This document shows positions 3,551 to 48,217 of a stretch of DNA of 64,000 nucleotides, one piece after another. The position numbers and the translations under genes are program-made. The stretch spans positions 3,874 through 67,873 of the forward strand of contig JALOOM010000007.1 in NCBI GenBank assembly GCA_025454395.1, written 5' to 3'. The notes under the pieces were generated by a model. The model had not been told where the DNA came from and did no database searches. It was given only the letters and a program-made list of their open reading frames with translations. The stretch comes from Elainella sp. Prado103 (GTDB lineage Bacteria > Cyanobacteriota > Cyanobacteriia > Elainellales > Elainellaceae). Within the stretch, counting starts at the first letter, position 1. Each line of letters begins with the position of its first letter.

Positions 3551-5305
3551 CTAAACCGTCGGTAATAGCCCATACTGCGCCAACCAGCCGTCATACCGTC
3601 CCGAGTTGACCAGACCAGAGAACGTGCCCTGGGTTTGCCCTGCCAGATACACCGCACCGTCTGCGGCAACGGCCACGCCATAGGATTCATCTTCCCGATC
3701 GGTGCCAAACTGAGTGCTGGCGGTTAAGTTGCCACTGCTGTCATATTGGGCCATCCAGGCATCGGTTTTACCGGCTGCTCCGCCAAACAGCGCCTTATCC
3801 GTTTCACCAACCACGTAAACCCGACCCAAGCCATCCACCGCGATTGCCTGTGCCTCCTCTAGACCATTTGTACCGAACTGCTTCACCCATTGCAGGGTAC
3901 CCGTCTGGCGATCGTAACGTGCGAGAAAGGCATCGGATTTCCCCCCGGCATCCGTATTAGCAGGTAAGCTGCCAGAGGGTAACGTGCCGGTAGTTTGTCC
4001 GGTGATGTAAACATCTGAACCAAAAACAGCAATGCTACGGGCATAGTCCTGCTCCGTGCCTTCACTGGCCAAGGTTTGACTCCAGAGTTGCCCGCCCGAA
4101 TTACCGTCATAGGCAGATACAAACCCATCCCCACCGACGGGTCGAATCCCGTTATTGTTCAACCCTACCGTCGCTCCAGTAATCCCGGTTGTGTAGAGCT
4201 TGCCTTCACTGATAGCCAGATCCACCGCAGCCGTCGCGTCGCCCCCAAATTCGATCCGTCCTGTGCCGCCAAAGGTCGCAATCGCATCACCGGTCGTGGC
4301 ATCATACTTCGCAATGAACCCTTTCCCAAGACTGGGCAGGGGAAACGCTCCCAGCACACCTGAGGTATAAAGGCTATTTCCGTCCAGGGCAATACTTAAC
4401 CCGGCATCTAAAGCGTTACGTGTTACTCCTTCTACCTGCACCGTTGTGGCGATCGTCTTAATCCACTGCTGCACGCCATCCGCATTATATTTGGTGACAA
4501 AAGCATCACTATTGGTGGAACTGCCAGACCCCGTGACCGTTGCCCCAACCACGTAATAGTTGCCTCCGGCATCAACGACTAGGTCAAAGCCCACATCTGC
4601 ACCGGGCGTATCGATCGATCGTCTCCACAGTTGGGTGCCATCAGCGGCGTACTTGGCGACAAACCCGTCTCCGGCAGGCCCGCTCGCGTTAGATACACCA
4701 GTCAAATAGAGATGACCCCCACTGTCTAGCGCCGTACCGTAGGTGTAATCATTGCCACTGGTGCCCAACTGTTGCAGCCAGCGACGACTGAAAGTGCCCA
4801 ACTGAATCGGAACCGGCCGGGGAGTGGGATCGGTGGGTAGGATCCCTGGATCGGTCGGTTGGCTGGGGAGCGCAGACACCACCGGCTCAGCCTCCAGTCC
4901 CAAACTGTAGCGGCTCACCCCTTTAATCTGCCGTACCCGCAGGTAATATTCTCCAGGCAGTAGATCCAACGAGAGGTTGCCATCTTTCCCGTTGGCAGAG
5001 GTTTTAGCACCAATGGTTTTGAGAAACTTTTTGATATTTTGTGGTTTTAACTCACTAAATTCCGTTCGGCCGATCGCCTTCAGAATCTTCTTTTTATTCC
5101 CTTTGAGCGCAAACACCTGTATCCCAATCACTGAGCCTTTGCTACTATCAAGCTGCAAATCGAAGCTGCTGCGCTCATTAAAGCGAATCCGAAACAGGTC
5201 ATCCCGATTGGATCGATCCAGTGCGCCTTTCAGCGCAGTAGAATCAGCTCCCAGGTTCAACCGCTTGGCAGCCGACAAGGTATTTTTAGCAATGTCTCGT
5301 GGCAT
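3551..5305 (-). CDS. SBBP-repeat beta-propeller protein with an N-terminal PPC-like beta-sandwich
   Basis: Repeated units W-x-x-Q/T-x-G-T..D.....+A+D..G.+Y+.G from about aa 175 to the end. N-terminal DDLFRI..LLPGEYYLRV resembles a pre-peptidase C-terminal domain. Pro-rich linker. Confidence 0.8.
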   Translation of the reverse strand: MPRDIAKNTLSAAKRLNLGADSTALKGALDRSNRDDLFRIRFNERSSFDLQLDSSKGSVIGIQVFALKGNKKKILKAIGRTEFSELKPQNIKKFLKTIGAKTSANGKDGNLSLDLLPGEYYLRVRQIKGVSRYSLGLEAEPVVSALPSQPTDPGILPTDPTPRPVPIQLGTFSRRWLQQLGTSGNDYTYGTALDSGGHLYLTGVSNASGPAGDGFVAKYAADGTQLWRRSIDTPGADVGFDLVVDAGGNYYVVGATVTGSGSSTNSDAFVTKYNADGVQQWIKTIATTVQVEGVTRNALDAGLSIALDGNSLYTSGVLGAFPLPSLGKGFIAKYDATTGDAIATFGGTGRIEFGGDATAAVDLAISEGKLYTTGITGATVGLNNNGIRPVGGDGFVSAYDGNSGGQLWSQTLASEGTEQDYARSIAVFGSDVYITGQTTGTLPSGSLPANTDAGGKSDAFLARYDRQTGTLQWVKQFGTNGLEEAQAIAVDGLGRVYVVGETDKALFGGAAGKTDAWMAQYDSSGNLTASTQFGTDREDESYGVAVAADGAVYLAGQTQGTFSGLVNSGRYDGWLAQYGLLPTV

Positions 5306-5902
5306 AGGTTTAATAGGGTTAATCTTAGGTCTATCGATTGTCCTATCCGGATCCAGGCAAGCCCATGGCAGGGCGATCCCGTATTCAGGCGATCGGATTG
5401 GGTACGTTCAGTTACCAGTATTCCCATCTCTGCTGCAGCCAGGCACAAGATCCCGGACAACCGAACAATGTTTCATCGGGACTTTACCGATTGACTTGAT
5501 ATCTCAGGAAATTTACGGTCAGGAATGGATCGCCATAGAAAATAGACAGCCATAGAAAATAGACGGCGAGCAATTCATAGAACTAGATAGAATGTCCTGG
5601 GTCTGATAGGCGCGATCCCCCGAGGCAAGCATTACATTTTGTTACTCTGATTTGATACATTGGTACTAGATTTCAGCGGGAGCAAAGGCGGAGGGATAAA
5701 GAGGGATAAAGACAGAAGGAGCATCCTGTAGTCTGGGTTTGGCGGGTGGATAGAGCCCAAGGCGAAAGAGGCTAGTGATCAATTGCCCTTATCAATTGAC
5801 GCTATAGATAGAGCACAATTTCAGAAAATGACCCTAAAAATCTCTAGATGTAGCGAGCAAGATCCGTTACTCTAGTCTCAGCCATTTGGTTTGAGAACGC
5901 TT

Positions 5903-8900
5903 ATGTCGTTTGTTGGTCTACACATTCACAGTGATTACAGCTTGCTAGACGGAGCCAGCCAGTTGCCCCAACTGGTCGATCGAGTTGTGGAGTTAGGGAT
6001 GTCGGCCGTGGCCCTCACCGATCACGGGGTCATGTATGGCGCGATCGAGCTGCTGAAAGTCTGCAAAGCCAAAGGTGTGAAGCCGATCATCGGCAATGAA
6101 ATGTACATCATCAACGGCGACATCACCAAACAGGAACGGCGGCCACGCTATCACCAGATTGTGTTAGCAAAAAACACCCTCGGCTACAAAAATCTGGTCA
6201 AGCTCACTACCATTTCGCATCTACAAGGTGTTCAAGGCAAAGGCATCTTCTCCCGCCCCTGCATCAGTAAAGATCTGCTGGAACAGTATCACGAAGGGTT
6301 GATCGTGACGAGTGCCTGTTTAGGGGGCGAGGTGCCGCAAGCAATCATGCAAGGCAAGCCTGAAATTGCTCGCCGGATCGCCCAGTGGTACAAAGACCTT
6401 TTTGGCGGGGATTACTATTTAGAGTTGCAAGATCATGGCTCTCAGGAAGATCGGATCGTCAATGTCGAAATTGTGCGGATCGCTCGCGAACTTGATATTC
6501 AGCTCATCTGCACCAACGATTCTCATTACATCTCCTGCTACGATGTCGAAGCCCACGATGCGCTGCTCTGTATCCAAACGGGCAAGCTGATCAGTGAAGA
6601 CAAGCGCCTGCGCTACAGCGGCACGGAATACCTTAAGTCAGCAGAAGAAATGCGCTGTCTGTTTCGAGATCACCTGACGGAAGACATTATTGAAGAGGCG
6701 ATCACCAATACCCTCACGGTGGCAGATAAGGTTGAACCCTACCAGATCTTAGGAGAACCTCGCATTCCCGACTATCCGGTTCCTGAAGGTTACACCCTGT
6801 CTTCCTACATGGAAGCCGTGACCTGCCAAGGGTTGATGGAGCGGTTTGGCTGCGAAAGTTACGAGGCGATCGATCCAGTCTATCGAGAGCGGCTGGAATA
6901 TGAAATGCAAATGATGCATCACATGGGCTTTGATGCCTATTTCTTAGTGGTGTGGGACTACATCAAATATGCCAGAGATCACGGAATTCCGGTTGGGCCG
7001 GGGCGGGGATCGGCGGCTGGATCGTTAGTGGCTTACGCCCTGCGCATCACCAACATCGATCCAGTTCACCATGGACTGCTGTTTGAACGGTTCCTAAACC
7101 CAGAACGGAAATCCATGCCCGATATTGATACTGATTTTTGCATCGATCGCCGCGATGAAGTGATTAGCTACGTTACTGAGAAATATGGGGCAGAGCGTGT
7201 TGCGCAAATTATCACTTACAACCGCATGACCTCCAAAGCCGTTTTGAAAGATGTCGCACGGGTGCTGGATATTCCCTATGCTGAGTCGGATCGGATGGCT
7301 AAGTTGATCCCCGTCATGCGCGGCAAGCCAGCCAAACTCAAGGTGATGATTTCGGACAGCACACCGGCTCCCGAATTTAAAGAAAAGTACGACACCGATC
7401 CAAAAGTGCGCCATTGGATTGACATGGCCATGCGGATTGAGGGCACTAACAAAAGTGTAGGGATCCATGCGGCTGGCGTGGTGATCTCAGCACAGCCTCT
7501 GGATGAGATTGTTCCCTTACAACGCAATGCAGATGGGGCCGTATTTACCCAATATTTCATGGAAGATATTGAGTCTCTAGGTCTGTTAAAAATGGACTTT
7601 CTGGGGTTGAAAAACCTGACTATGATCCAGAAAGCAGTGGATTTGATCGAGCAAACCCATCAGGTCAAAATTGATCTCGATCGCTTACCGATGGATGATC
7701 CCAAATCCTATCAATTGCTTGCTAAAGGGGAACTCGAAGGCATTTTCCAATTAGAATCTTCTGGGATGCGACAAATTGTGCGAGAGTTGCGCCCTTCTGG
7801 ATTAGAAGATATTTCTTCCGTGCTCGCCCTCTATCGACCCGGGCCATTGGATGCAGGATTGATTCCCAAGTTTATTAACCGGAAACATGGCCGGGAAGAG
7901 ATCAAATATGATGATGAGATTTTGCAGCCGATCCTGAAGGAAACCTACGGCATCATGGTCTACCAAGAACAGATCATGAAAATTGCTCAGGATATGGGTG
8001 GATATTCCCTTGGACAGGCCGATTTACTACGCCGTGCCATGGGAAAAAAGAAACCGGAAGAAATGCAAAAGCACCAGGCTGCATTTGTAGAAGGATCGGT
8101 TAAAAATGGTGTCAAGCAAAAAGTAGCAGAAGAACTGTGGGAACAGATGGTACAGTTCGCTGAATATTGCTTTAATAAATCTCACTCTACAGCCTATGGC
8201 TATGTCACCTTTCAGACGGCCTATCTGAAGGCGAATTATCCGGTGGAATACATGGCAGCACTTTTGACCGCCAATAGTGGCGATCAAGATAAAGTGCAGA
8301 AGTATATTGCCACCTGCATGATGATGGGAATTACCGTGGAGCCTCCCGATATTAATCGCTCAGGCGTAGATTTCACACCATTGCAGACTAGCATTTTGTT
8401 TGGATTATCCGCTATCCGCAACGTTGGCGAAGGGGCGATCGAACATATTCTGGCCGCACGAGATCAGGATGGGCCATTTAGCTCACTGTCAGATCTGTGC
8501 GATCGAATTGATCCAAGGGCGGTGAACCGGCGAGCCCTGGAAGCCTTAATTCAGTGTGGTGCCCTAGACTGCATTGACCAAAACCGTCACCAACTCATGC
8601 AAGATCTGGAACTCGTGTTGGATTGGGCTCAGTCCCGTGCCAAAGATCGGGCGATCGGTCAGGGTAATCTGTTCGATCTCCTGGGCAACAGTACGACCAC
8701 TAGCGGCTTTGAAACTGCCCCTAAGGCTACCCCGGTTCCTGATTATCCTCCCCAAGAAAAGCTAAAGCTAGAAAAAGATCTACTGGGCTTCTATATTTCT
8801 GATCATCCTCTCAAAACGATCCAGCAGTCCGCTCGCATGTTAGCCCCCATTAATTTGAGTGATCTTGCTGACAAGCCAGATAATCTCACCCTCAGTGCTA

Positions 8901-37469: not shown

Positions 37470-38657
37470 TTACAGGGCTGCTGAGTTCGGAAGCGGCACG
37501 ACCGGCAGACTAGGAAGCGGGCTAGCTTCTGGAAGGGGCACTGGGATAGGCGCAGAGCTAGAGTCTGGTAGGGGTGAGGTTGCAGCCGGTGGAATTGCAG
37601 CCGGTGAGACAGTCGCCGGTGAGACACTCGCCGGTGAGACACTCGCCGGTGAGACAGTCGCCGGTGGAATTGCAGCCGGTGAGACAGTCGCCGGTGAGAC
37701 AGTCGCCGGTGAGACAGTGGCAGCGCAAGATTCTGTTCCGGGCGACTGAGTTGTAATTTGAATCTGTGGATAACCAGCGGTACTCAATAACTGGCTGACC
37801 ACGAGTTGGGCCCGATCGGTCGCCGATTGCAGGATGCCATCATTGCAGGCAGTCTGGACAATTTTAGCTAAGGTTTCTTGCTGCGCTAAAACTTGCAATT
37901 CTGGAGCAACATCGGGCCCCAGCCCCAAAAAGCCCCGATCGTAGTCATACACCTTCGATCGATTCACATCTATTTTGCTGTCTAGAATTTTGGCTGGAGG
38001 CAGTACCAGAGCAATTTGATCGCCATTTACCTGGATGTTTTGAGGCTGAAGGGTAGACAAATCCACCCCAGCACGCACTTCACCATGGGCGATGTAAAGT
38101 AACGTAGTTTTGCCGATCACATAGCTGCCCAAGGTACGCTCTCGGCTAGTCGGCACCACCGATTCCATACTGTAAACCGCAGTGGTTAATTCGCTGGCTC
38201 CGCGCACTTGCTGCACCACGATCGATCGAATATCAACTTGTGCCGGTGCGGTCGTGAGGGTTAAAGCTTGACGCAAGTGATGCAACAGTTGCCCGCCTGA
38301 TTGCCACATGCCGATCAGCCCAAAAGCGATGATGAACAACACGCCACCCGTCGTCATCAACGATAGATTCTTGCACCAAAGCTGCCAACCTGGGGTAGGT
38401 CGAGGCGGATGTGTCCAAGATGCACGATCGGCAGAATGGGCATATCCGGCAGAATGGGCATAACGATCGGACGGTGAAGTCGCAGCGGTGGTTGAAGGGT
38501 GTAATTCTCTAGGCAATTCCCCGGACAATTCCCGATCGGTTACAAAGCCGACCGTGGGTGGGTTGAAGGGTTGTGGGCGTTGGGTGGGGTTGGCGGGAAA
38601 AGCAACAGGAGCTGAGGCATGGGGCTGGGAGGGTGGCTGGTGAGGGCGATCGGGCAT
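37470..38657 (-). CDS. DUF4230 family protein with a Pro-rich N-terminus and ATVSP-repeat tail
   Basis: Single TM helix, ELTTAVYSMESVVP, GEVRAGVDLS, LPPAKILDSKID. Confidence 0.85.
   Translation of the reverse strand: MPDRPHQPPSQPHASAPVAFPANPTQRPQPFNPPTVGFVTDRELSGELPRELHPSTTAATSPSDRYAHSAGYAHSADRASWTHPPRPTPGWQLWCKNLSLMTTGGVLFIIAFGLIGMWQSGGQLLHHLRQALTLTTAPAQVDIRSIVVQQVRGASELTTAVYSMESVVPTSRERTLGSYVIGKTTLLYIAHGEVRAGVDLSTLQPQNIQVNGDQIALVLPPAKILDSKIDVNRSKVYDYDRGFLGLGPDVAPELQVLAQQETLAKIVQTACNDGILQSATDRAQLVVSQLLSTAGYPQIQITTQSPGTESCAATVSPATVSPATVSPAAIPPATVSPASVSPASVSPATVSPAAIPPAATSPLPDSSSAPIPVPLPEASPLPSLPVVPLPNSAAL
37581..37717 (-). repeat. About 9 copies of a 15-bp unit encoding ATVSP/ASVSP/AAIPP
   Basis: gccggtgagacagtc and variants, read directly. 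Confidence 0.9.
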
Positions 38658-39565: not shown

Positions 39566-41992
39566 ATGCCCCATTCCGTAACTCTTTACTGCCCTAACCC
39601 GACTTGCCAAGCAGCGAATGCGGAAGACCATCACTTCTGCCAGAAATGCTCCACAGTGCTGCCCCACCATTATCTCTGGGCGATCGGTTCCGGGAGTTTC
39701 GCTGCCAAATTGGGTGATCGGGTGGGCGATCGATATGTCTGTAAGCAACCCAATGTCTTTCTGGATACGAAGCCTGGTCTCTTATCCAACACCTACCGGG
39801 AACTTCCTCAGCGTTATTTACCCTATTTGCGCTTGGTTCCCTATCAGCTCCATTTGCCCCAGGTTTACGATTGGGTGCAATTGGAAGCCGATCGAGCAGA
39901 TTTATTATTGTTGGATCGAGTTCCTCTTATCTCAGGGGGCGATCGAGTTACATCCCTAGCTCCAGCCCAGACTGCCAGCTCAATGCAACTATTGCCAACT
40001 TTGGCTGAGCAATGGCAGCAGGTATCTCCCCTGCGGCAGCTCAACTGGCTGTGGCAAATCGCCAATCTGTGGCAGCCCCTCAGTAGTGAACAGGTGGCGG
40101 GTAGTCTGCTCGATCCAGCCTTAGTGCGGGTTGAAGGATCGTTAATCCGATTACTGAAGTTGCGTCTCTTGGAAGCTCCTCCCCTCACGGATTTAGGGCA
40201 GTTATGGTTACAGTGGTCTGAAACGGCCCATCCAGAAGTCCGGCCGTTTATAGAGCAACTGAGCCAGAAGCTGATTGCCGGAGAAATTCCCAATGGGGAA
40301 GTATTAGTAAGCTATTTAGATGCGGGATTGGCTGAACTCAGCCAGTGCCAAACTCGCCAGCTTGAATTGATTACGCTCACCGATCAGGGGCCGACTCGCC
40401 AGCGCAATGAAGATGCTTGTTACCCTGTGAGTGGCACCCAGACGACCGCAACCCATCCAGCCCTATTGATCGTCTGTGATGGGATTGGGGGGCATCAAGG
40501 GGGCGATGTGGCCTCTCATTTGGCAATCACCACCTTAGAACAACGGGTGAAAGCACTTGATCTCGATCGGTTTGATCCAATCCATTTATCGATCGAGCTG
40601 GAAAAGGCTGCCTGTGAAGCGAATGATCAGATTAGCCAACGGAATGATCAAGAACACCGATTTGAACGGCAACGTATGGGTACAACCCTGGTGATGGCTC
40701 TCGTGCGTCATCATGAACTTTATGTTACCCATGTCGGCGATAGTCGCGCCTATTGGATTACCTCACGCGGTTGTCATCAACTCACTTTAGACGATGATGT
40801 GGCTTCTCGAGAAGTGCGGTTGGGCTACAGTTTTTATCGTCAAGCCCTGCATCAACCCAGTGCAGGATCGTTGGTGCAGGCTCTGGGGATGGGAGACTCC
40901 TCGATGCTGTATCCCACTGTCCAACGGTTGATTCCCGATGAAGAGGGATTGCTGCTGCTCTGCTCCGATGGGTTGAGTGACAACGATCGGATTGAGGAGA
41001 GCTGGGAGGCTGAAATTTTGCCGTTGCTCAGTCGGCAGGCTGATTTGGCAACGGTGAGTCAGCGCTTGGTGGAGATTGGTAATACCCGCAATGGCTATGA
41101 CAATGTGACGGTGGGGTTGATTCACTATCGGGTGGCAATCACTCATCCAGTACCAACCTTATCGCAACTACCCGAAACTTTACCATTCAGTTTATCCACA
41201 CAGCCGACGGTGAAAACGCAACCGAGTTGGGGACAAACAGATCAGTGGACTACCGAAAATACTCAGTTTGACGATCGAGAAACCGCAGATACAACTCTGG
41301 TGGCTCCACTGCAATCAGACTCATCTCCGACCCAGACCCGGCACTCGGCCAGCTCTATCAGGCGACAATGGAATCTTACCCCGCTTTGGCTAGGCATTGG
41401 GTTATTGATGGCGATCGGAGCAGGTGTCGGGGCGCTTTTGTCAGTGCTGCGGGAAGATCATTCTGGAGCTGATCCCACTCCTTTACCGGCTTCACCTGTA
41501 CCAACCCTCGAAAGTCAGCAACCGAATCTCGCCATGCCTCTCAGTTCGCTAGAGGTAGGCATGTTGGTACAACTGACTCAATCACCCGATGGGAATGAAC
41601 CCCTGCTGCTGGATCGTCCGGGCAATTGGGGAGCGACGACCGCAGAACCTCTGGCAGAACCTGTCAATCAGCCTGAGCCGCAACCGTTAGGTCGCATTCC
41701 GAGGAGTGCAGTTCTGGAGGTGCTACGGAAGCAAAGTTTGATCCAGCAAGAGCGTTGGGTAGAGTTAAGGGTTTGTACGGTGACTACCACTACATCCTCT
41801 GCGTCGCCCAGTGGTCTAACCAGTAGCCCAACCAGTAGCCCAACCAGTAGCCCAACTGAGCCGATCGAGCCTGAACCCTTGCTGTCCCCTCTCCAAACAG
41901 GGCAGACCGGCTGGATCGAGGAAAGGCTGATCTTGCCCTTGCTGACTCCCTACTCAGACGGCTCAACCGCACAGCCATCTGCCTGTCGCTAA
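39566..41992 (+). CDS. Membrane-anchored PP2C Ser/Thr phosphatase with an N-terminal Cys4 zinc ribbon (PrpJ-like)
   Basis: CPNPTC..FCQKC; PP2C motifs NEDA, VCDGIGGH, GTT, HVGDSRAY, CSDGLSD, DNVTV; TM helix LWLGIGLLMAIGAGVGALL. Confidence 0.9.
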   Translation: MPHSVTLYCPNPTCQAANAEDHHFCQKCSTVLPHHYLWAIGSGSFAAKLGDRVGDRYVCKQPNVFLDTKPGLLSNTYRELPQRYLPYLRLVPYQLHLPQVYDWVQLEADRADLLLLDRVPLISGGDRVTSLAPAQTASSMQLLPTLAEQWQQVSPLRQLNWLWQIANLWQPLSSEQVAGSLLDPALVRVEGSLIRLLKLRLLEAPPLTDLGQLWLQWSETAHPEVRPFIEQLSQKLIAGEIPNGEVLVSYLDAGLAELSQCQTRQLELITLTDQGPTRQRNEDACYPVSGTQTTATHPALLIVCDGIGGHQGGDVASHLAITTLEQRVKALDLDRFDPIHLSIELEKAACEANDQISQRNDQEHRFERQRMGTTLVMALVRHHELYVTHVGDSRAYWITSRGCHQLTLDDDVASREVRLGYSFYRQALHQPSAGSLVQALGMGDSSMLYPTVQRLIPDEEGLLLLCSDGLSDNDRIEESWEAEILPLLSRQADLATVSQRLVEIGNTRNGYDNVTVGLIHYRVAITHPVPTLSQLPETLPFSLSTQPTVKTQPSWGQTDQWTTENTQFDDRETADTTLVAPLQSDSSPTQTRHSASSIRRQWNLTPLWLGIGLLMAIGAGVGALLSVLREDHSGADPTPLPASPVPTLESQQPNLAMPLSSLEVGMLVQLTQSPDGNEPLLLDRPGNWGATTAEPLAEPVNQPEPQPLGRIPRSAVLEVLRKQSLIQQERWVELRVCTVTTTTSSASPSGLTSSPTSSPTSSPTEPIEPEPLLSPLQTGQTGWIEERLILPLLTPYSDGSTAQPSACR

Positions 41993-42366: not shown

Positions 42367-44022
42367 ATGCCTGATCATCCTTGCCTCAGATTGGCAATTT
42401 CTCGCCTCGCGGAGCTGGAGCCGCGACACTATGCTATTTGGGTGTGGCAGGCTCCTTATCCAGGTGGTTATGTGCATCATAACTGCCAGTGGACAGAAAC
42501 CTTAACGGAGGCTTGGCACGCCTGGCAAAACTTCTTTCCGGTGCGGGGTCTGCCGCCTGTGCCCTTTGTTTCTTCTGCGTTTATTCCATCTCCGCCGTTG
42601 GACTTGAATGGAGATACTGCCAATCCGGCTGGGCAGCCCACCAATTACACCGGACGGGTGATGCAACAATTGGGGGTGACTCTCTGGCAATGGCTATTTG
42701 ACGGGCCCATCCAAAGCAGTTACAACCGTAGCCTGGGCATTGCGATCGGTCAACGGCAAGCTTTGCGGTTGCGCTTGGAAGTGCGCGATCCCGATTTAAT
42801 CATGCTGCCCTGGGAGATCATGCAAACTGAATCAGGCACCCAGGCCATTTCCCTTAGCAAGCAAATTTTGTTCAGCCGCACCACCAGTGATGTTGATTCT
42901 CTGCCGCCCCAACGCACCGAACAGGTTTTGAGAATTCTGCTGGTTTTGGGACACAATCCAGAAGCGCCGCCAGTGGGCAGTTCTGAGCAGGGTGGACAAC
43001 GCTTAGCCCTGGAGCAAGAAGCAGAGTCCTTGGCTCAATTATTGGAGAGCGCTGGTGCCACCGACTATCGGAGTACCGCCCCCGCTATCTGTCAGGTGAC
43101 TACCTTAATCGAACCCAGCAAAACTGAGTTAACCAACTTGTTGGAAACCGGGGCCTATAACGTCCTGTTTTATTCTGGGCATGGGGCTCCTGCTGCCGAC
43201 GGTGGCTTACTATTTTTGCGAGCCGATGCGGAAATTAACGGGACTGAACTGGCTCAGATCCTGGTGCGAATGCAAGTCAAACTCGCCGTGTTCAATGCCT
43301 GCTGGGGTGCCCAGCCCGATCATCGCGATGGCCAAGCGATTCCGCGCAGTAGCTTGGCGGAGGTGTTAATCCATCACGGAGTACCTGCTGTGTTGGGAAT
43401 GCGCGATTCTATTACCGATGAAGAGGCGCTCAGTTTTATCAAAAAATTTACGCAGCAGTTGGCCCGCCGATCGCCCATTGATGAAGCAGTAGCGATTGCC
43501 CGCCAAGACTTACTGTTGTTGTATCGGTTTAATCAACCGGCTTGGACACTGCCTGTCCTTTATATGCACCCCGAATTTGATGGCGAGCTGATCCGCCCTT
43601 ATACAGAAGGTGTGACTGAAATTCCCGATCAGTCAGCCAGTTGGTTAGGTCGTCACATGCCCCAGGCTTATCTGCGCTCTCTCGTGGCTCCCCCTAAAAT
43701 TTGGTCCCTGCGAGGGGGGATCATGCGGGTTGGACGGGGTGAAGGCAACGATGTGGTGTTACAACAGCCAGAAGTATCGCGAGAACATGCCGAAATTTTA
43801 TTTCAAGATGCGGCGGGTGCAACCTCGATCGAGGAAAGCGAGCCGACCTATCTGTTGCGCGATAAGTCGCGTTGTGGCACCTGGGTTTGCAATCCAGCCA
43901 ATTCAGAAGGGTGGATCTTGGTTCGTAATCGGGAAGTGCCGCTCCCTTCAAAAACCCAATTGCGGTTCGGTAATCCTCGCGGACAAGCCTTGGAGTTTGT
44001 GATCGGATCGCCGCCCATCTAG
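42367..44022 (+). CDS. CHAT (caspase/HetF-like) protease with a C-terminal FHA domain
   Basis: LPWEIM, FYSGHG, VFNACWG, W.LPVLY; FHA motifs GRGEGNDVVL..PEVSREHA and DKSRCGTWV. Confidence 0.9.
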   Translation: MPDHPCLRLAISRLAELEPRHYAIWVWQAPYPGGYVHHNCQWTETLTEAWHAWQNFFPVRGLPPVPFVSSAFIPSPPLDLNGDTANPAGQPTNYTGRVMQQLGVTLWQWLFDGPIQSSYNRSLGIAIGQRQALRLRLEVRDPDLIMLPWEIMQTESGTQAISLSKQILFSRTTSDVDSLPPQRTEQVLRILLVLGHNPEAPPVGSSEQGGQRLALEQEAESLAQLLESAGATDYRSTAPAICQVTTLIEPSKTELTNLLETGAYNVLFYSGHGAPAADGGLLFLRADAEINGTELAQILVRMQVKLAVFNACWGAQPDHRDGQAIPRSSLAEVLIHHGVPAVLGMRDSITDEEALSFIKKFTQQLARRSPIDEAVAIARQDLLLLYRFNQPAWTLPVLYMHPEFDGELIRPYTEGVTEIPDQSASWLGRHMPQAYLRSLVAPPKIWSLRGGIMRVGRGEGNDVVLQQPEVSREHAEILFQDAAGATSIEESEPTYLLRDKSRCGTWVCNPANSEGWILVRNREVPLPSKTQLRFGNPRGQALEFVIGSPPI

Positions 44023-44151: not shown

Positions 44152-44850
44152 ATGTCAAGCAATTCACAGGATGAGAATCCTTCGCCAGAGTTTTTGGAGC
44201 ATACCATGACCCACAATCCGAACCCCGCTGTGCTGTTTCCAACCCGAGCCCATGCTGAGCTGGAACTGCTGCAAATGCTTTTACAAGAAGAGGCAGACTC
44301 TCTCGATACATCAGTTGCTTATCCTTGGAATCCGGCAGAAGCAGAAAGCTACTTTGAGGTGTTGGAACAGGCGGTTTTGCAAGCGGGTTGGACAGAAGCA
44401 GAATTTACCGAGCCTGGACAGGCAATTTCGAATCTATTAAATCAAGCTTGGGCTGAGGCTACCTTGCCGGTTTCATCGGTTTCAACGGCGATGCTGAGTT
44501 TGCTTCAGCAGTTTGCCTCCCGGTTTGATGCCCAAGTGCCTCAACAAGTCTTAAGTTCAATTGCCCAGCAAGCTCAGCAGTTGATGAGCGAAAATCGTTC
44601 GATCGCCGATCGAATGGTGGATTGTGTGCGCGACTGTTTTCCCGCTTGGGCAGAAGAAGATTTGCAAGTTTTGGCTCGTCCCTTTGCCTTTGCCATGCGG
44701 AGTGCAGAAACGGAAGTCTTGGAAGCCGCGCTTCGCTCTATGCGTTGTGCCGCCTGGAGTGATCTGTCCGGTGTAGAACAGGCTCGTCTGAGTTTGGCGA
44801 TCGCTCGCTATGCGATTGATCACGCTGCCAGTGATCCTCATGAAGTCTAG
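44152..44850 (+). CDS. Conserved cyanobacterial hypothetical protein, possibly PatU3-like
   Basis: YPWNP, DCFPAWAEEDLQVLARPFAFAMRS, WSDLSGVEQARLSLAIARYA; alternative start at 44206. Confidence 0.8.
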   Translation: MSSNSQDENPSPEFLEHTMTHNPNPAVLFPTRAHAELELLQMLLQEEADSLDTSVAYPWNPAEAESYFEVLEQAVLQAGWTEAEFTEPGQAISNLLNQAWAEATLPVSSVSTAMLSLLQQFASRFDAQVPQQVLSSIAQQAQQLMSENRSIADRMVDCVRDCFPAWAEEDLQVLARPFAFAMRSAETEVLEAALRSMRCAAWSDLSGVEQARLSLAIARYAIDHAASDPHEV

Positions 44851-44914: not shown

Positions 44915-46273
44915 CTAGCGAAACCCAGTAAACCGAGTTGCGAAATTCTGCGATCGAGTCGGAGATAAAGCCCGGGCCTTGAGGATCGCTGCCGTCAAAA
45001 AAGCGTAAGAGATAACCCCCACCACTGCCAATACGAGTAAATTAATCAGCCCCATCGTATTCCAGAGGGCATGGAGTCCTGAAGCAGTTAAGTAGCCCAC
45101 CCCCAAAATCTGCCAGCGCTTGGTGGGTTTGAGAATACTCAACCCAATGAAGTAGCCTAAATAGCCGCTGTAAGCCATGTGACCGGAAATAGAACCCAGG
45201 ATGCGCGGAATGAGGAGCTGTAGCCCCAGTAGCTCTCGATACCCCACTCCCGCCTGAAACGTCACATCATTCATAATTCCGGGTACATATTGCCCCAAAG
45301 TTTCGAGCAAAGTGAAGCCAACCGCCGAAGCAGTGCCCAGTAAGATGCCATCTAGGGGTTCCCAAACTCCAATTTTTTCTCGGGCAGGCGATCGAAGCCG
45401 TGTGCCGATCCAGTAAACCAGCAATATGGGAATCGCCTTCAGCAACTCTTCCATGAGCCCCGCCCCAAAAAACATTTGGATCAACGTGATCACAAATCCT
45501 TCTGAGCCATCTTCAGGAATGTTGCCGGGCAAAATGCCGCGAAACACCAGGACAAATAATCGCAGCACAGGGCTCAGCAGCAGCAGCATTGTGGTAATGC
45601 CGGTACCCACCAGTAGCCACCAAGGCTTTTGTTTGCCACAGAGCTGATAGACAAAATAATAAGCAATGCCTGCAATATAAGCTGCCAGGAGCACATTAAA
45701 AAATCCTGGATTGCCGATCGACAGAAACAGCAGCACCACAAAAGATACGGTGATGATGCCTGGAATCAAATAGGCTTTACGGGTGAGATCACGCCCCGTG
45801 GAGAGGATGGGGAACAATTGGCTGAGGGTGACCCCATCGCTCGGTATGGCTTCTCGCGGGTAAGCAGCGGCGATCGGTTCTGGTTCAGTCGGTAAAGGCA
45901 GGGCAGAAGGATGGGTCGGAATGGAATTGCGCAGCTCAAACACAAATTGCGGCCCAGTTTGAGATAGCAAAATTTGATCGCCAGCCCGGAGATGCCGACA
46001 CCCTTTAATCCGCTGACCATTCACATAGGTGCCATTGGCACTATCGAGATCGCAAATTTGCCAGCCTGAGGTGGAATGAGGCGCGACGCTAATTCGCACA
46101 TGCTGTCGGGAAACAGCTCCATAAAGCTGGGAGTCAAGCACAATCTGGCAACGCGGATCCCGGCCAATCACCACGGTTGCTGGGGCAATCAGTGGATAAG
46201 TGACCAGGGATGACTCCTTGGGATGAGTAGTGATCCGCCGTAGAAACGCAGAACAGGAAGATGAACTGTTCAT
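44915..46273 (-). CDS. FHA domain plus PrsW-family intramembrane metalloprotease
   Basis: IGRDP..VSRQH..DLDSANGTYVNG (FHA); GLMEELLK, GFTLLET, GHMAYSG, LHALWN (PrsW). Confidence 0.9.
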   Translation of the reverse strand: MNSSSSCSAFLRRITTHPKESSLVTYPLIAPATVVIGRDPRCQIVLDSQLYGAVSRQHVRISVAPHSTSGWQICDLDSANGTYVNGQRIKGCRHLRAGDQILLSQTGPQFVFELRNSIPTHPSALPLPTEPEPIAAAYPREAIPSDGVTLSQLFPILSTGRDLTRKAYLIPGIITVSFVVLLFLSIGNPGFFNVLLAAYIAGIAYYFVYQLCGKQKPWWLLVGTGITTMLLLLSPVLRLFVLVFRGILPGNIPEDGSEGFVITLIQMFFGAGLMEELLKAIPILLVYWIGTRLRSPAREKIGVWEPLDGILLGTASAVGFTLLETLGQYVPGIMNDVTFQAGVGYRELLGLQLLIPRILGSISGHMAYSGYLGYFIGLSILKPTKRWQILGVGYLTASGLHALWNTMGLINLLVLAVVGVISYAFLTAAILKARALSPTRSQNFATRFTGFR

Positions 46274-46737: not shown

Positions 46738-47964
46738 CTAATCTACAAGACAGTCCTCAAGCTGTTGCTTCAACGTCGGGTGATCGAGGTTTTGACCAAT
46801 TAGCACAAGCTGGATCTTAGGCTCGCCCTTCCAGGCTTCATCATCCAACGAGAATCGTTTGCCACTGAGATGGAAAATGTGGCGTTTGGGGCTTTCCTCA
46901 AACCAGAGGATTCCCTTTGCTCGGAAGATATTTTCTGGTAATTGGTGATCGAGAAAATTCTGGAATTTCCGAATGGCAAAGGGCCGATCGCTCTGAAATG
47001 ATAGGGATGTGAAGCCATCCATCTCCAGGTGATTGGAATGATGGGCATGATCGTGATGCTCATGGCTATGATGCTCGTGATCATGATGATCGTGATCATG
47101 ATGGGCATGGCTGTGATGCTCATGGCTATGATGCTCATGGCTATGATGCTCATGGCTATGATGCTCGTGATCATGATGCTCATGATCGCAATGCCCATGC
47201 TCATGATCGCAAGCAGAATGATCGTGATGATCGTGATCATGATGATCGTGATCATGATGATCGTGCTCCGGTTCAATCAACCGATCCGGATTGAAGTATT
47301 GATCCGACTCGAATAACCCCACACTGAGAATGAGCGGTAATGCCACCTGGGACTTGGCAGTGCGCAGAATGCGAGCCCCTTCCTTGATTTCACGGATTTT
47401 GCCCTCTAATCGATCGATCTCAGCTTCCTGCACCAGATCGGTCTTGTTGAGCAAAATAATATCGCCATAGAGAATTTGATTGTAGGCAGCCTGGCTATTG
47501 AAGAGATCAAGGCTGTAGTTTTCCGAATCTACCAGGGTCACGATCGAGTCAAGCCGAGTCATATCACGCAGCTCCGTACCCAAAAAGGTGAGAGCGATCG
47601 GTAGAGGATCGGCCAGCCCTGTGGTTTCAACGACCAGATAGTCAATCCGATCTTGACGCTCCAACACTCGATAAACGGCATCGACGAGATCATTGTTGAT
47701 GGTGCAGCAGATACAGCCGTTACTCAGTTCAACCATCGTGTCATCTGAGCCTTCCACCGTCACCAGCAGCTCATTGTCGATCCCCACTTCTCCAAACTCA
47801 TTCACCAACACGGCCGTCTTCAGACCTTCCTGGTTGGTCAGAATATGATTGAGCAGGGTGGTTTTGCCACTGCCCAAAAAGCCAGTGATAATCGTGACCG
47901 GCAGCCCATGCTTAGCATCATCCATGCGGGTTGCAGTTGCGGCGGAAGGAACGGTTGAAGTCAT
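46738..47964 (-). CDS. COG0523/CobW-family G3E GTPase, putative Zn metallochaperone with a His-rich insert
   Basis: GFLGSGKTT, NEFG, GCICC (CxCC), ETTGLADP, NKTD, C-terminal CobW_C domain; likely start at ATG 47964. Confidence 0.93.
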   Translation of the reverse strand: MTSTVPSAATATRMDDAKHGLPVTIITGFLGSGKTTLLNHILTNQEGLKTAVLVNEFGEVGIDNELLVTVEGSDDTMVELSNGCICCTINNDLVDAVYRVLERQDRIDYLVVETTGLADPLPIALTFLGTELRDMTRLDSIVTLVDSENYSLDLFNSQAAYNQILYGDIILLNKTDLVQEAEIDRLEGKIREIKEGARILRTAKSQVALPLILSVGLFESDQYFNPDRLIEPEHDHHDHDHHDHDHHDHSACDHEHGHCDHEHHDHEHHSHEHHSHEHHSHEHHSHAHHDHDHHDHEHHSHEHHDHAHHSNHLEMDGFTSLSFQSDRPFAIRKFQNFLDHQLPENIFRAKGILWFEESPKRHIFHLSGKRFSLDDEAWKGEPKIQLVLIGQNLDHPTLKQQLEDCLVD

Positions 47965-48217
47965 AGCTTTGCCTGGATAGATCTGCAATGTAATGTAAGG
48001 TCAAAAATGCAAGGCCCAAACATATGGGGTCAGTTAGAAACTACTGGAATTGCTTGGGGCACAGCAGGCTGAGACTGTCCAGCATACTGAATTTCGTCAG
48101 CTCTTTAATTTTCATTCCTCAGAAGCGCAATATTGCATCGAACCAAAAGTCAATTACAACAAGCAGCATTCATCATACCTTCATTATCACCGATCCCTTC
48201 CAGGGAGGAAAAGAAAA

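Follow-up and report, generated by a model that had tools for sequence, protein, structure and literature searches.

A probable relative of the PatU helical core encoded beside a HetF-like CHAT-FHA protease in Elainella sp. Prado103

The window analysed here, a 64,000-nucleotide stretch of DNA from Elainella sp. Prado103, encodes next to a CHAT protease a small protein belonging to a conserved, so far unnamed, all-helical family of cyanobacteria, for which the designation FAM is used below. As judged from profile comparisons, FAM and the helical core of PatU are very probably distant homologues. The reading that we favour, with a probability of roughly one half, is that FAM is a PatU-core paralogue which is cut by the adjacent, HetF-paralogous protease, the two forming a sister system of HetF and PatU3. 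HetF is a CHAT protease that has been described as separase-related, and PatU3 is a cell-division inhibitor that is inactivated when HetF cuts it after Arg117 (PMC9457339). In addition to being cut by HetF, PatU3 binds sigma-HetZ and Ftn6/ZipS (PMC9457339, PMC13342950, PMC12288457).

The reading frame at positions 44152-44850 (+) is open and codes for 232 aa. Its window translation carries YPWNP, VPQQVLSSIAQQAQQLMSENRSIADRMVDCVRDCFP...LARPFAFAMRS and WSDLSGVEQARLSLAIARYA, letter for letter as quoted in a preliminary description of this DNA. Homologues are 205-220 aa long and their alignments begin at Met19 of the 232-aa frame; since a GGAG is also found 10 nt 5' of the ATG at 44206, this ATG is the likely start, giving a protein of 214 aa (44206..44850, +, stop codon included). 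The 18 codons at 44152..44205 (+) lie outside the coverage by homologues and represent a possible, probably untranslated, N-terminal extension. Both forms, of 232 aa and 214 aa, are contained in the protein collection; the residue numbers of FAM given below refer to the 214-aa form.

Directly upstream, at 42367..44022 (+), lies the gene for a 551-aa cysteine protease of the CHAT type that ends in an FHA domain (CHAT-FHA), assigned with Pfam and NCBIfam. This is the CHAT protease that the preliminary description had placed beside the frame, and the Cys312 named there is indeed its catalytic cysteine (43300-43302, +); the catalytic His272 is encoded at 43180-43182 (+). No promoter-like or terminator-like site was seen between the CHAT-FHA and FAM genes. 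Upstream of CHAT-FHA lie ndhM and, at 39566..41992 (+), the gene for a membrane PP2C Ser/Thr phosphatase of 808 aa with an N-terminal four-Cys zinc ribbon (Pfam and NCBIfam), a frequent, non-obligatory upstream neighbour of FAM. The zinc ribbon of this phosphatase resembles those found in front of kinases (NF045510, weak match); about 230 residues precede the PP2C domain, and a hydrophobic segment is located near residue 620. The convergent neighbour of FAM, at 44915..46273 (-), encodes an FHA-PrsW intramembrane protease (Pfam), the FHA domain of which matches the FhaB/FipA model of NCBIfam, and which has a phyletic pattern different from that of FAM. Two further genes of the window may be mentioned. 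The gene at 46738-47988 (-) encodes a CobW/COG0523-type GTPase in which the GTPase domain and CobW_C are separated by a long insert rich in His, Asp and Glu (HDHHDHDHH...HEHHSHEHHSHEHH); this suggests a metal (zinc) chaperone. At 37470-38657 (-) a DUF4230 protein is encoded, with a Pro-rich N-terminus and imperfect C-terminal pentapeptide repeats (ATVSP / ASVSP / AAIPP).

The FAM family comprises 586 clusters at 90% identity and 233 clusters at 50% identity, and nearly all of its named members are called 'hypothetical protein'. Near-invariant positions are YPW(39-41), P112, D152-L153, R158-P159, M164-R165, W184, L187 and A200. The AlphaFold model, calculated from a 114-sequence alignment, has a mean pLDDT of 84, is all-helical with nine helices and ends after the last helix. 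Searches of FAM against Pfam and NCBIfam delivered noise only, and a pairwise search of the Elainella genome found no paralogue of FAM. The Foldseek comparison proposed in the preliminary description likewise returned no relative of the predicted structure from the PDB (best E 1.2). No Thr is invariant in the family as a possible ligand of an FHA domain; the FHA ligand is therefore probably another protein. The naming of FAM members as 'DivIVA' by JGI and, in one case, as 'Phycobilisome protein' by NCBI is unsupported by domain scans of the window protein, and protein P0185 (1068 aa, 13 matched stretches) was discarded as a low-complexity false match. In the literature no description was found of the FAM family, of a HetF-like/PatU3-like pair or of a cyanobacterial CHAT+FHA protein.

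The genuine PatU of the Elainella genome is a 344-aa ORF on contig C134 which overlaps the end of hetZ. The hetZ gene on this contig scores 634 bits (NF037963; the cut-off of the HetZ model is 550), and close homologues of the 344-aa ORF bear the NCBI name PatU. Real PatU/PatU3 sequences contain ...PPLFPWET..., LPEKVFWQLLAKCQVLLTSSLPLGAKLVQVVESMFP...LAGLVLRSSYRS and DYFDLLPRQQMALSLMAAKQ, so that the PatU3 pattern given in the preliminary description proved correct. With the FAM HMM, the PatU of Elainella ranks 4 among the ORFs of its genome at E 0.087. Since this match is unconvincing alone, profile-profile tests and other genomes were included.

In hhalign, the FAM alignment matched a 40-sequence PatU alignment over 95 columns with Prob 74.8%, E 2.6e-5 and a score of 42; larger alignments of both families gave Prob 77.7 and E 1.9e-5. 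As compared with the real score of 42, both reversed alignments yielded 28.2, 100 column shuffles a maximum of 26.2 and 100 block shuffles a maximum of 34.3. The profile check against PatU3 that the preliminary description had called for thus came out positive, with a probability of 75-78% and an E of about 2e-5, above the 200 shuffles and both reversed controls. At a relaxed threshold the match is collinear over the whole FAM protein. The YPW motif of FAM (residues 39-41; 44320..44328, +) then pairs with FPW of PatU, and the conserved W of FAM with the invariant W of PatU. The FAM block at 44539..44646 (+), VP...L..I..A.Q...LV.CV..FP, pairs with PatU LP..L..L..C...KLVRAVE.LFP in hhalign and hmmsearch alignments; at the relaxed threshold the pairing reads VP..L..I...LV.CV..LP against LP..L..L...KLVRAVE.LFP. 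Downstream of it MR|S of FAM pairs with RS of PatU, and EQARLSLAIARYAL with QQMVLSLLAAREI; the FAM block W..LS..EQARLSLAIARYA at 44761..44817 (+) is aligned with PatU Y....QQM.LSLLAA.

Single sequences behave in the same way when searched with the profiles. The FAM HMM scores 135 PatU proteins with a median of 15.8 bits and a top value of 26.2, and their reversed sequences with a median of 0.3 and a top value of 7.3 bits, so that 98.5% of the PatU proteins outscore the best reversed control. In the opposite direction, the PatU HMM reaches up to 27 bits on FAM members and 2.9 bits on reversed sequences. Across 301 cyanobacterial genomes the FAM HMM has six secondary matches at E 1e-3 or better. 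In five of the six (E 1e-5 to 6e-4) the matched ORF, of 333-392 aa, immediately follows a gene that passes the cut-off of the HetZ model, and because of this position the five are taken to be PatU. In the AlphaFold models the helices of FAM and PatU follow each other in the same order. The PatU model also contains strands at residues 242-340 that resemble Ig/FnIII folds, and a Foldseek search of this model against the PDB matched only the C-terminal Ig-like domain.

FAM is not PatU in the strict sense, because its gene lies away from hetZ and both end regions of PatU, N-terminal part and C-terminal domain, are missing. The term 'PatU3 paralogue' used in the preliminary description therefore holds, at the profile level, for the helical core, and fails for the N-terminal part and the Ig-like domain of PatU, both of which are missing. 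As to PatU itself, the gene is a single ORF of 330-400 aa in most other genomes. In Dolichospermum it is split as in Anabaena PCC 7120, with stops in the N-terminal part that leave a PatU3 frame of 270-272 aa.

The protease gives matches of 2e-23 to the Pfam CHAT model and of 2.5e-9 to the FHA model. Against the NCBIfam HetF model CHAT-FHA scores 169 bits, in the protease domain only (equivalog cut-off 1200). When its CHAT domain is compared with the CHAT proteins of Elainella, the HetF-like protein of the genome scores 143 bits, whereas none of the other six exceeds 35 bits, which bears out the earlier designation of the protease as HetF-like. By sequence comparison the genome's HetF has CHAT-FHA as its closest paralogue. 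In the Elainella HetF-like protein itself, which reaches 593 bits against the HetF model, the CHAT domain is accompanied by a hydrophobic segment and a long C-terminal region. Both His272 and Cys312 of CHAT-FHA are invariant in 64/64 sequences. In its FHA domain the phosphate-binding Arg and Ser are conserved, and the canonical Asn is replaced by Tyr (by Cys in the window). HetF paralogues without the membrane helix were mentioned in a paper from 2013.

HetF cuts PatU3 between Arg117 and Ser118, in T-N-Y-R|S-P-E-T, and substitutions of R117 block cleavage (PMC9457339). In the split PatU3 of Dolichospermum, counting from a GTG start puts the S-S-Y-R-S Arg at residue 117. Arg165 of FAM is aligned with this PatU3 Arg117 in all alignments. 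The predicted cleavage site, Arg165-Ser166 of FAM (Arg183-Ser184 in the 232-aa numbering), is encoded at 44698..44703 (+), aligned with Arg117-Ser118 of PatU3; it reads A-M-R|S-A-E-T-E in the window, and the translation across it is FAFAMRSAETEVL. Arg165 occurs in 340/345 members, with G, S, D or N at P1', and R158, another Arg, is no less invariant. In both AlphaFold models confidence dips at the site of the aligned Arg. This site belongs to a low-confidence, variable loop in the PatU model, and in the FAM model Arg165 caps a highly conserved helix (DLxVLARPxAYAMR) just before the dip. Because this segment of FAM is a conserved helix and not a variable loop, it would suit binding as well as cutting, and it may be a binding motif. 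By analogy with HetF and PatU3, cleavage of FAM by CHAT-FHA after Arg165, the exact site included, is nevertheless what we regard as most likely.

Synteny was examined in 80 FAM loci from other genomes, and phyletic distribution in 301 cyanobacterial genomes. CHAT-FHA lies directly upstream of FAM and in the same orientation in 63/80 loci; in the remaining 17/80, with unicellular species among them, it is not adjacent. For 18/19 non-adjacent cases the protease is encoded elsewhere in the genome, and no conserved neighbour was found in those FAM loci that are without it. The PP2C gene is located upstream in 42/80 loci and FHA-PrsW is present in 39/80. Among the 301 genomes, FAM occurs in 83 and a CHAT-FHA orthologue also in 83, with both in 82. 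The sole case of FAM without the protease among the 83 genomes is a Gloeocapsopsis (G011), where PP2C and FAM are found side by side and a CHAT-FHA orthologue nowhere.

PatU is present in 71/301 genomes, accompanied by HetF-like matches, and all but one of these genomes also possess FAM. In 13 genomes FAM occurs without PatU; the unicellular Crocosphaera, Microcystis, Pannus, Gloeocapsa and Gloeocapsopsis belong to this group, and Microcystis and Crocosphaera have kept FAM and CHAT-FHA while PatU and HetF are absent. Only one genome has PatU without FAM and CHAT-FHA. Because 13 FAM-only genomes are opposed by this one PatU-only genome, the FAM/CHAT-FHA and PatU systems are separable, with the former being the broader. 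FHA-PrsW is distributed differently: it is absent from the FAM-bearing Microcystis and Crocosphaera genomes and present in five genomes without FAM. It therefore stands outside the co-inherited core and serves as a control: the pattern shared by FAM, its protease and, as described below, HetZ-related protein 2 is not trivial. The idea of a duplicated protease-substrate pair, which the preliminary description had put forward, fits both the phyletic pattern and the synteny; by analogy with HetF and PatU3, the duplicated partner would be a substrate.

A third component may be a paralogue of HetZ. HetZ belongs to the ECF-type sigma factors, and PatU3 probably acts as its anti-sigma factor (PMC13342950). 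Besides HetZ, the Elainella genome has two HetZ paralogues, and no PatU-like gene was found beside either of them. One of the two, HetZ-related protein 2 (NF037965, 589 bits), is encoded outside the window on contig C139:10521-11723 (+). HetZ-related protein 2 occurs in 84/301 genomes, which are the exact union of the FAM and CHAT-FHA genome sets and take in unicellular genera. Its gene is adjacent neither to FAM nor to CHAT-FHA in any of them, and no real physical linkage with FAM was found: of 25 pairs that share a contig, 4 fall within 55 kb, with the others scattered. HetZ-related protein 2 may be the partner of FAM, on the basis of a shared distribution that rests on few independent gains and losses. 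In three genomes of one family (G080, G248, G294) it is shortened to 316-324 aa, with in-frame stops in 2/3 copies; it may be decaying in this lineage, where FAM and the protease are kept. The other paralogue, HetZ-related protein (NF037964, 622 bits), is located at C151:2338-3666 (+); the gene after it, at 4099-6825 (+), codes for 909 aa with an N-terminus that resembles Ser/Thr kinases. Located 1.7 kb upstream of the paralogue, a short ORF (C151:409-657) has a weak match to the FAM HMM (E 0.039), probably by chance.

According to the favoured reading, the soluble CHAT-FHA would cut FAM after Arg165 (A-M-R|S), and the cut would take the inhibitor off its partner. Ser/Thr phosphorylation would probably gate CHAT-FHA by way of the FHA domain, as a phosphothreonine-reading module, with the adjoining PP2C phosphatase as the off-switch, and FAM may have as its partner HetZ-related protein 2, which is a paralogue of the HetZ-like sigma factor type. 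We infer cleavage, partner and phospho-control alike by analogy. FAM is most likely a substrate, or at least a dedicated partner, of CHAT-FHA, and the two possibly form with HetZ-related protein 2 a trio of sigma factor, anti-sigma factor and protease. More tentatively, HetZ-related protein 2, the FAM inhibitor and a phosphothreonine-gated CHAT-FHA could make up a second, broader sigma-HetZ/PatU/HetF circuit. This circuit, which we hold to be possible but doubtful, could be the ancestor of the heterocyst/division switch, because it would be shared by filamentous forms and the unicellular Microcystis, Crocosphaera and Gloeocapsa.

Separase is held by its pseudosubstrate securin, and FAM could in a similar way be a partner of CHAT-FHA and not its substrate, that is, a securin-like pseudosubstrate inhibitor, a chaperone or an adaptor which uses its conserved ARPxAYAMR helix to occupy the active site or to direct it. 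Such a role would agree with the tight synteny and co-occurrence of the two genes, with the position of Arg165 in a very conserved helix instead of a variable loop, and with the description of HetF as separase-related (PMC9457339). Among characterised relatives, however, HetF and PatU3 come closest, and they are a genuine enzyme and substrate with the aligned Arg as their cut site; we consider a partner that escapes cutting unlikely. Another proposal is that FAM is a PatU-like inhibitor, for example one that regulates division or serves HetZ-related protein 2 as anti-sigma factor, which is controlled without cleavage by CHAT-FHA. Phosphorylation, HetF or general proteolysis, for instance, would then take over the control, and the adjacency of the genes would reflect co-regulation only. 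The supported homology to the PatU core, the distribution shared with HetZ-related protein 2 and the lack of adjacency to the protease in 17/80 loci, unicellular species included, would agree with such an inhibitor. However, the protease is present in 82/83 FAM genomes, even where the genes are unlinked, and unicellular species that are without HetF still have both genes, which makes this proposal quite improbable.

It may finally be asked whether the likeness of FAM to PatU is a product of chance or of composition, both being helical and rich in Q, A and L, FAM then being a small, unrelated protein that partners a HetF-like protease. FAM has no match in Pfam, NCBIfam or the PDB, the hhalign probability is only about 75% with reversed controls at 28, and the genome's own PatU is found at E 0.087. 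These values are opposed by a real hhalign score above all 202 controls and by the 98.5% of PatU proteins that beat the best reversed control. PatU is, moreover, the recurrent secondary match genome-wide, the five motifs are collinear, and the neighbouring protease has been recognized independently as a paralogue of PatU3's own protease. A chance likeness thus appears very unlikely.

To our knowledge, HetF-PatU3 is the only known proteolytic switch that links cell division with heterocyst differentiation. The FAM/CHAT-FHA pair is found in 28% of the sampled cyanobacterial genomes, including unicellular bloom-formers without HetF and PatU, and would, if true, provide an evolutionary origin for the pathway. 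It would also give a function to three 'hypothetical' families, FAM, CHAT-FHA and HetZ-related protein 2, and it makes the testable prediction that FAM is cut after Arg165. In Anabaena, prpJ (all1731) encodes a PP2C that is required for heterocyst maturation; alr1728 is a Fox gene, and all1729 is listed as specific to filamentous strains. If the correspondence of locus tags holds, the FAM locus may explain the role of the prpJ region in the heterocyst maturation of Anabaena.

Among known systems, the actinobacterial fhaA-fhaB-pstP genes form a Ser/Thr phospho-signalling cluster of cell division. As at the FAM locus, FHA proteins are encoded there beside a membrane PP2C; in contrast, the FAM locus is without a kinase, its outputs are proteases and its lineage is cyanobacterial. 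The sigma/anti-sigma pair of sigma-HetZ and PatU3 (PMC13342950) resembles the present case in that a HetZ paralogue matches the distribution of FAM and its protease. Here FAM is not adjacent to the sigma-like gene, and the link consists in co-occurrence only. HetF (Alr3546, CHAT, clan CD) has its counterpart in the CHAT domain with a His-Cys dyad of CHAT-FHA. HetF, however, possesses a transmembrane segment and a C-terminal periplasmic region, whereas CHAT-FHA is without both and carries a C-terminal FHA domain instead. The hetF and patU3 genes are unlinked, whereas the gene for CHAT-FHA is linked to that of its putative substrate.

PatU3 (Alr0101) of Anabaena sp. PCC 7120 and the unsplit PatU have core blocks in the same order as FAM, those in common being [F/Y]PW, W, [L/V]P..L..[L/I]...LV..V..[LF]P, R|S and [Q/E]Q..LSL..A. 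In both PatU and FAM an Arg at the position of the HetF cut is followed by a small residue, and both are accompanied by a protease of the HetF lineage, putatively so in the case of FAM. Identity between FAM and PatU3 is too low for pairwise detection. PatU is encoded directly after hetZ, whereas FAM has CHAT-FHA and FHA-PrsW as its neighbours, with hetZ-patU on another contig. The unsplit PatU begins with a PatU5-like N-terminal part, which is missing from FAM, where only about 38 residues precede YPW and the alignment starts from about residue 85 of PatU. The C-terminal Ig-like beta-sandwich of PatU, of about 100 aa, is also missing from FAM, which in turn has additional helices between YPW and the core. 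Unlike PatU, FAM is found in unicellular cyanobacteria whose genomes are without PatU.
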